Sequence record: OL615012
From: Shigella phage vB_SboM_Phaginator
Reading direction: 5' to 3' (one strand)
Length of the DNA stretch: 64,000 nucleotides
Every line of letters begins with the position of its first letter. Position 1 is the first letter of the stretch. Of the stretch, positions 45,492 through 46,458 are shown piece by piece. The translations under genes were made by a program, and so were the position numbers. Under the pieces are notes generated by a model. That model was not told the origin of the DNA, did not search any database, and saw only the letters and a program-made list of their open reading frames with translations.

Positions 45492-45506
45492 TTAACACCT
45501 ATATAA

Positions 45507-45854
45507 TCAATACGGTTTAGCATCAAATTTTCTCTCAATTTCAGGTGTGAAATATAATTCTTTACCACGTTTGGAAAAGCGACCAATAATATGATAATTA
45601 TTCTTATCAAACGTAATATTACCAATATCCATAGCTTTCAACCAAATATCGATATTTCTATCCAGCTTTATGTCAAAATTCCAATACGGAGAACTATTAC
45701 CGAAAATACTGCAAGCGGATTCAGTGAAACAACTGCTATAGATCTTGTCTTTGGGAACTACTAATTGATAGACACCTTTAATAAACTGAGGACCCTGCCA
45801 TTTTGGCTGTTTCGTGTCTTTTTCTAACAGAATAGGGTAATAATTAAAATTCAT
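45507..45854 (-). CDS. Hypothetical protein encoded by insertion between frd and td
   Basis: 115-aa ORF ([19 protein letters not shown]...) in a ~350-bp segment absent from the T4 frd/td junction as I recall it. Confidence 0.6.
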
Positions 45855-46458
45855 ATTTTCCGCCGCGCGTTATTTCATTTTTATATACTGATTCCGTAAG
45901 GGTTGTTACTTCATCTATTTTATACCAATGCGTTTCAACCATTTCACGCTTGCTTATATCATCAAGAAAACTTGCATCTAATTGAACCGTTGAATTAACA
46001 CGATGCCTTTTAACGATGCGAGAAACAACTACTTCATCTGCATAAGGTAATGCAGCATATAACAGAGCAGGCCCGCCAATTACACTTACTTTGGAATTCT
46101 GATCAAGCATAGTCTCAAATGGTGCATTAGGGCTTGACACTTGAATTTCGCCGCCAGAGATGTAAGTTATATATTGCTCCCAAGTAATATAGAAATGTGC
46201 TAAATCGCCGTCTTTAGTTACGGGATAATCACGCGCAAGGTCACACACCACAATATGGCTACGACCTGGAAGTAATGTAGATAATGACTGGAACGTTTTA
46301 GCACCCATAATCATAATTGTACCTTCGGTACGAGCTTTAAAATTCTGGAGGTCCTTTTTAACTCGTCCCCATGGTAAACCATCACCTAAACCGAATGCTA
46401 ATTCATTAAAGCCTTCGACTGTTTTAGTTGGAGAATAAGCGAATACCAATTTAATCAT
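45844..46458 (-). CDS. frd: Dihydrofolate reductase (with short C-terminal extension)
   Basis: 204-aa ORF; first 193 aa match T4 Frd; extra 11 residues ([11 protein letters not shown]) read into the inserted segment. Confidence 0.93.

Follow-up and report, generated by a model that had tools for sequence, protein, structure and literature searches.

The closest described systems to the locus analyzed here are found in the T4-type phages themselves. The seg and mob genes of T-even phages, which encode free-standing homing endonucleases, have been treated by Edgell et al. 2010 (PMC2988022), and modular shuffling mediated by PeSLs, together with mini-circles, has been described for T4-type phages by Arbiol et al. 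2010 (PMC2839356). GenBank fragments of phages T2H (AY262132.2) and T6 (AY262134.2), both of which are in the accession list of Wilson and Edgell 2009 (PMC2790892), contain a gene named td.1 between frd and td.

The stretch of DNA analyzed here, 64,000 nucleotides from Shigella phage vB_SboM_Phaginator (sequence record OL615012; called the window below), contains a nucleotide-metabolism cluster of the T4 type (Tequatrovirus) in which all genes are on the minus strand. The features of the locus are as follows.

41836-44100, minus strand: nrdA
44091-44417, minus strand: nrdA.1
44371-44634, minus strand: nrdA.2
44631-45491, minus strand: td, intronless, encoding thymidylate synthase of 286 aa (Pfam match, E = 7e-96)
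45486-45494, minus strand: copy of the repeat TAAATGAAA at the right-hand end, corresponding to the true start of td
45492-45506, minus strand: spacer of 15 nt between td.1 and td, with an AGG Shine-Dalgarno sequence inside (from alignment)
45507-45854, minus strand: td.1 (RB32ORF229c, PHROG 1928), encoding 115 aa, 13.7 kDa, pI 9.0 (from the ORF list and the PHROG 1928 match)
45844-46458, minus strand: frd, encoding dihydrofolate reductase of 204 aa, compared with 193 aa in T4 (Pfam DHFR_1, E = 4e-19)
45844-45879, minus strand: 3' extension of frd, 11 codons and TAA (run of five A; same form in RB14)
45860-45870, minus strand: GC-rich junction filler, ACGCGCGGCGG
45871-45878, minus strand: relic mini-ORF, ATG AAA TAA
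45873-45880, minus strand: left copy of the td-start motif, AAATGAAA here and TAAATGAAA in phages with three A
45878-45882, minus strand: run of five A (AAAAATG), with three A in T4, T2H, Ge15, and AndreasVesalius (from alignments)
46458-46703, minus strand: ORF of 81 aa, PHROG 3183, upstream of frd

In T4 GT7, frd and td abut, with the TGA of frd overlapping the ATG of td (...GTATATAAATGAAACAATACC), as the initial annotation had stated. The window has ~389 bp more than T4 at this point, and the 115-aa ORF that was reported to separate the two genes is present at 45507-45854 (minus strand). The junction string that had been quoted, AAAAATGAAATAACGCGCGGCGG, was likewise located at 45860-45882 on the minus strand, and the ATGAAA in it had been correctly matched to the td start, a copy of which is kept at the left edge of the td.1 allele. 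The frd genes of the window and T4 have 97.6% nucleotide identity in the first 579 nt.

A second indel relative to T4 is seen on the other flank of frd. The 81-aa PHROG 3183 ORF, which joins the frd start by an ATGA overlap, is also found in Ge15, RB14 (as RB14ncORF233c), and fFiEco06 and lacks a counterpart in T4 GT7, where ~21 bp correspond to ~202 bp of the window.

The ORF between frd and td is the already annotated gene td.1 and not an unrecognised protein, as had first been thought. Its names in the databases differ: it is td.1 in the T2H and T6 fragments, RB32ORF229c in RB14, RB32, and RB51 (with the GenBank note 'flanked by 9 bp repeat' in RB14), and 'putative homing endonuclease' in the records of the BASEL phages AndreasVesalius and WilhelmHis and their relatives. 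The homology search that the initial annotation had proposed for the ORF identified td.1 and PHROG 1928 (E = 3.3e-35), which places it in that family by similarity, and the gene is located directly downstream of frd and upstream of td in the window, the same position as in RB14, T2H, and T6. Searches with megablast and tblastn were run against 50,697 phage records. The ORF matched 580 records in tblastn, 362 of them at >90% identity and 218 at <60%, and coverage of the DNA query selected the same 362 records. The protein is 95% to 100% identical to homologues in 348 phage records (98.3% to td.1 of T2H), and the gene is present in ~362 of the ~537 Tequatrovirus records that carry frd, about two thirds of the genus. 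Over this region, no database record exceeds ~98% identity to the window. A literature search for td.1, RB32ORF229c, and phrog_1928 yielded no description.

The td.1 genes of T2H, T6, and RB14 are the same gene as the window ORF, with 97% to 98% protein identity and in the same place, and RB14 also shares the extended 204-aa frd. In the comparison with T-even genomes, T2H, T6, and RB14 carry td.1, and the T4 junction is empty. RB14 and RB3 combine the same ORF with an identical frd C terminus, the observation that the initial annotation had named as refuting its reading, although the gene is accessory and not core.

The window differs from T2H and RB14 in that the spacer between td.1 and td is 30 bp shorter, as it is in Ge15 and REP1, the only phages with the short spacer among the matches listed. 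The longer form is found in RB14, T2H, AndreasVesalius, and most td.1 phages (compare L002:1593-1637), and in the three named phages the additional 30 bp carry GCTTCA-N10-TATAAT, which looks like a MotA box and a -10 element. Since this promoter-like segment is missing, td in Phaginator may depend entirely on read-through transcription.

The feature is a small nonessential accessory gene, and the place it occupies, the frd|td boundary of T4-type phages, is a polymorphic slot. We consider it likely that the locus as a whole is explained by a known accessory gene, td.1, occupying this polymorphic slot after a probable re-import, with a separate extension of frd. T4 is an atypical reference carrying a rare empty allele, and therefore td.1 stood out as an apparent insertion and drew attention. 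GenBank already lists td.1 together with the repeat that flanks it, which leaves the finding mostly of little weight.

Three alleles were distinguished at the frd|td boundary of Tequatrovirus: td.1 (~67%), a 68-aa ORF (~25%), and the empty junction (~6%), as counted by database records, which are not phylogenetically independent. The 68-aa-ORF class was found by searching with the T4 junction and has an insert of ~206 bp. This ORF (PHROG 9550; L013:1312-1518 in fFiEco06, with homologues at L016:3670-3879 and L009:~3148-3351) is unrelated to td.1, is absent from the window, and occurs in ~135 Tequatrovirus records at ≥95% identity. In fFiEco06, its ATG overlaps the frd TGA (TATAAATGAGC) and its TAA overlaps the td ATG (CTAATGAAACAATACC). 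Distant homologues (~43% identity) were also seen in Phapecoctavirus-type phages. The exact empty junction was found in 31 records, about half of which are T4 itself or near-identical strains. The textbook overlap of frd and td in T4 is a rare allele of the genus. A slot with three alleles beside a mosaic td and a mobile intron makes a convenient natural system for single-gene gain and loss at start/stop overlaps.

The gene on the other side of the slot, td, falls into deep allele classes. The class of the window and RB14 has 85% nucleotide identity to that of T4, T2H, and fFiEco06, and a third class, in ECO07P3, has 75% to 77% identity to both and 85% identity to Dhakavirus VR5. By contrast, frd is 94% to 98% identical throughout the genus (97% to 98% between the window and T4). 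These deep td classes beside a nearly uniform frd identify the frd|td boundary as a sharp mosaic breakpoint, as judged from the alignments. By count arithmetic without phylogenetic correction, an estimated ~85% of td.1-less and ~25% of td.1-bearing records have the td group I intron with I-TevI. Strict exclusion of td.1 and the intron was ruled out with a chimeric query made of the 3' end of td.1 and the 5' end of the intron, as 90 records, T6 and RB3 included, carry both. In many relatives, I-TevI is encoded in an intron situated ~550 bp from the frd|td junction, with the exon I side facing the junction, and co-conversion by I-TevI is biased into exon I (PMC2988022). Such co-conversion could drag the junction allele along and could explain the association of the intron with the td.1-less junction.

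The td.1 family is not confined to Tequatrovirus. A homologue directly follows frd, usually overlapping it, in every genus examined (seven genera and two metagenomic contigs): it stands immediately after frd in PEi26 (Kanagawavirus), Mineola (Jiaodavirus), Potts1 (Marfavirus), Moon (Moonvirus), EcS1 (Kagamiyamavirus), and STML-198 (Gelderlandvirus), and after frd in Cronus (Roskildevirus). In most of these genera, a second small ORF comes next and is followed by td. This second ORF is a paralogue of td.1 that has the same motifs and matches PHROG 1928; it encodes 113 to 144 aa and contains an extra insert of ~20 to 25 aa, 'PTIxEYKxNP'. The paralogue lies downstream of the td.1 homologue (L006, L009 to L012, L016, and L017) except in Cronus, where it is upstream, and was also located at L008:2059-2493. 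In metagenomic contig L016 and in phage Potts1, the order is frd, td.1, the paralogue, a homologue of the 68-aa ORF (81% and 79% identical, respectively), and td, the chain being joined by overlaps of the ATGA type. Members of the family are roughly 95 to 140 aa long and often occur as two tandem paralogues, sometimes followed by the 68-aa gene. When 1.84 billion representative proteins (50% identity clusters) were searched with the profile, 40 clusters with lengths of 37 to 139 aa were obtained, and since these are so few, the family looks small. All members whose source was examined come from a T4-like phage or a phage-like contig. PHROG 1928 is an uncharacterised family that is conserved, selected, and linked to frd, and its narrow distribution makes it a tractable target.

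The initial annotation had described an acquired cassette inserted exactly at the gene boundary. Relative to T4, the insertion does lie exactly at the boundary, and the junction is also empty in RB69 and VR5; the cassette is neither foreign nor unrecognised. As for the direction of the event, we lean toward td.1 having entered an empty T-even junction long ago from another T4-like phage, with the join at TAAATGAAA. Mosigvirus and Dhakavirus are regarded here as the genera closest to Tequatrovirus. In RB69 (Mosigvirus) and VR5 (Dhakavirus), frd and td abut at the same empty junction as in T4, TATAAATGAAACAATACC, and the frd genes of these phages have 63% and 74% to 75% nucleotide identity, respectively, to frd of Tequatrovirus. 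The identities to contigs L016 and L017 are 63% to 66% for td.1 and only 48% to 49% for frd, 50% to 52% for frd.1, and 37% to 42% for frd.2, the inverse of the relation to other genera, where td.1 (29% to 43%) is less conserved than frd (44% to 55%). The shared empty junction, this inversion, and the copy of the td start at the left edge together favor the old import.

The left edge of the td.1 allele consists of the td-start copy, TAAATGAAAtAA, which gives the relic ATG AAA TAA, then 8 nt of filler, and then GGCGGAAAAT. The relic ATG overlaps the usual frd stop and shares the reading frame of td.1, whose own ATG follows 24 nt downstream; the mini-ORF may be what is left of a td start or of an earlier start of td.1. 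The sequence GGCGGAAAAT, which is the 3' part of ACGCGCGGCGG, resembles the 3' end of frd in relatives (GGTGAAAAAC in L017 and GGTGAAAAGC in L016), with only 7 of 10 nt matching the putative donor frd end, a resemblance from which we infer homology of the 10-mer. In L016 and L017, frd runs straight into td.1, without the td-start copy and the filler. The motif TAAATGAAA is present at both ends of the insert in T2H and AndreasVesalius, and the left copy reads AAATGAAA in the window. It is a common gene-start motif, with 8 copies in the window compared with 3.6 expected. Pattern scans of IMG/VR for four junction types gave few matches, mostly attributable to chance.

According to the import scenario, the T-even ancestor probably had an empty, ATGA-overlapped junction like that of T4, RB69, and VR5, and a re-import of td.1 from another T4-like phage probably followed. 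On the right, the join would have been made by homology in td, and on the left, at the td start motif TAAATGAAA, which would thereby have come to be duplicated at both ends. The repeat would permit precise excision and re-integration, e.g., via a circular intermediate. Nothing in the td.1 cassette is self-mobile.

The direction could also be the reverse, with td.1 ancestral in Tequatrovirus and nothing inserted, T4 and a few relatives having lost the gene by precise deletion between the copies of TAAATGAAA. We regard this as the less probable course of events, yet it stays viable because TAAATGAAA is frequent at gene starts and most records of the genus carry td.1, while the empty allele is rare and half of its records are T4 strains. 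The family is native to the same slot in at least seven genera and two metagenomic contigs, deletion of the DNA between the two motifs would yield the T4 junction exactly, and intron homing could have spread the td.1-less junction, given the much higher frequency of the intron in td.1-less records. The RB69 and VR5 junctions, for their part, could stem from parallel loss or exchange. Against an ancestral td.1, these two phages of two other genera have the identical TATAAATGAAACAATACC despite frd nucleotide identities of 63% to 75%, td.1 is nearer to L016 and L017 than frd, frd.1, and frd.2 are, and the td-start copy and filler at the left junction are absent where the frd of relatives reads into td.1. 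An earlier reading, in which T4 had simply deleted an ancestral td.1, was downgraded on account of the RB69 and VR5 junction and the inverted identities of td.1 and frd.

The extension of frd is a different matter. In the window, frd continues after ...TESVYK for 11 further residues and ends with a TAA 8 nt past the td.1 ATG, overlapping the first 11 nt of td.1. The initial annotation was right that frd loses its usual stop and gains 11 codons; the cause is an expansion of an A-run by 2 nt and not the insert. The window has AAAAATGA instead of AAATGA, with two extra A. The window and RB14 read TATAAAAATGA, whereas Ge15, AndreasVesalius, and T2H read TATAAATGA, with the frd stop at the T4 position. 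In exact-word searches, the form with five A was found in at least 25 records (RB3, RB5 to RB9, and RB14 among them) and the form with three A, which keeps the normal ...SVYK stop, in at least 255 td.1-bearing records. Because so many td.1 carriers keep the normal stop, the alignments identify the extension as an independent 2-nt homopolymer indel, separate from td.1. Past the conserved VY, the frd tails of different genera vary from 1 to 10 aa, and frd of metagenomic contig L017 also ends inside td.1 (...EF, on GAATTTTAA), and the extension is therefore probably harmless. The distance of 11 nt between the frd stop and the td.1 start suggests translational coupling. The A-run expansion would add 11 aa to Frd and probably couple translation of td.1 to that of frd, and td.1 would be read through on frd-td-nrdA transcripts.

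The gene itself has the properties of a native T4-type gene. Its codons differ from those of T2H td.1 by 15 synonymous and 2 nonsynonymous changes and from those of RB14, Ge15, and AndreasVesalius by 5 to 7 synonymous and 1 to 2 nonsynonymous changes, a pattern by which td.1 evolves under purifying selection. Its GC content (0.325) and GC3 (0.30) are inside the range of the neighboring genes, and comparison of composition and codon usage with the flanks, which had been recommended as a check, revealed no anomaly and no foreign signal. The idea of a foreign cassette does not hold, given these native values and the family's presence in the same slot in at least seven other T4-like genera. The unusually GC-rich stretch pointed out at the junction exists as an 11-mer and is only local, the GC content of the ORF being like that of its neighbors. 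RNA folding of the left junction and the GC-rich stretch gave no structure (z = +0.88).

The product is basic (pI 9.0; family median, 8.8) and rich in aromatic residues (20 of 115). In 44 family sequences, W19, G91, K95, and G97 are invariant, and Q16, G27, Y29, F93, and F102 are conserved in at least 90%; the family motifs QxxW, G-x-Y, and GRFxKxG....F are all present in td.1. No match to td.1 was obtained in Pfam, NCBIfam, or PADLOC, and a profile search of PDB sequences with the family was empty. The proposed structure prediction gave, with AF2 and an 11-sequence alignment, a β-rich barrel with one helix at residues 68 to 77 (pLDDT, 77.6; pTM, 0.74). Foldseek detected nothing significant in the PDB and, in BFVD, matched only uncharacterised proteins of T4-like phages. 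The OB fold is a closed β-barrel of five strands in which a helix separates strands 3 and 4. The nearest structural matches of the model are OB folds (HIN, Teb1, RPA, S1, and PriB), with Z scores of at most 3.7, below the levels usual for fold assignment, and the model differs from them in having more strands than the canonical five. The td.1 protein is thus predicted to be a basic, aromatic-rich β-barrel with a weak OB-like topology. Our best guess, made with low confidence, is that it binds either a nucleic acid or a protein with a link to the nucleotide-precursor genes, with whose enzymes it would be co-expressed. A broader reading seems doubtful: the td.1 family, with its one or two tandem paralogues overlapping frd in translation, could be an OB-like binder tied to the folate/thymidylate module of the phage, where it might regulate td/frd expression, serve as an adaptor in the dNTP-synthesis complex, or counter host defence, and the frd|td boundary could, separately, be a dedicated site of exchange (of td.1 and the 68-aa ORF through TAAATGAAA/ATGA, possibly by mini-circles).

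The BASEL annotation implies that td.1 encodes a free-standing homing endonuclease and reached the frd/td boundary by copying itself there, and the patchy presence of the gene within the genus and a loose resemblance of GVYQLV...KIYSS to GIY-N10-YIG point the same way. GIY-YIG homing endonucleases have a catalytic domain of ~90 aa, in which Arg, Glu, and Asn residues are conserved, and a separate DNA-binding domain; they are typically ~200 aa or more in length, cleave site-specifically, and show super-Mendelian inheritance. The td.1 product, in contrast, has 115 aa in a single domain and no DNA-binding domain. GIY-YIG identity was rejected, as none of the 44 family members matched GIY-YIG (PF01541), HNH, or another nuclease in Pfam, hhalign of the family profile with I-TevI gave a probability of 1.2% over 11 columns, and the predicted β-barrel is nearest to OB folds. 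The four invariant residues are not nuclease motifs, and the synteny is stable from genus to genus, the divergence being comparable to that of frd (29% to 43% versus 44% to 55%). An endonuclease identity is therefore very improbable. Still less credible is a transposon-like insertion with a 9-bp target-site duplication: a 9-bp direct repeat does flank the insert in phages with three A, but the ends carry no terminal inverted repeats, td.1 is the sole ORF and there is no transposase, homologues of the ORF are restricted to this locus of T4-like phages, and the composition is native. A chance origin of the reading frame in a noncoding spacer, as the lack of any functional annotation of it might suggest, is practically excluded by the strong synonymous excess, the 40 homologue clusters with conserved motifs, and the confident core of the predicted structure.

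Among the known systems, the seg and mob genes resemble td.1 in being optional ORFs between conserved genes that are variably present among T-even phages. Unlike them, td.1 lacks a nuclease domain or fold and keeps its synteny in different genera. PeSL cassettes have a strong sigma-70-like promoter and a terminator stem-loop, whereas the td.1 repeats are start/stop-overlap motifs of 8 to 12 nt (TAAATGAAA and AATGA). In the window, td.1 is without a flanking stem-loop, and no promoter or terminator around it exceeded the shuffle expectation; the td.1-td spacer of other phages contains a promoter-like element and has no stem-loop. As in PeSL-mediated shuffling, close relatives differ by the gain or loss of a small uncharacterised ORF precisely at gene boundaries, and recombination between the short direct repeats flanking td.1 could take the module out or bring it in.
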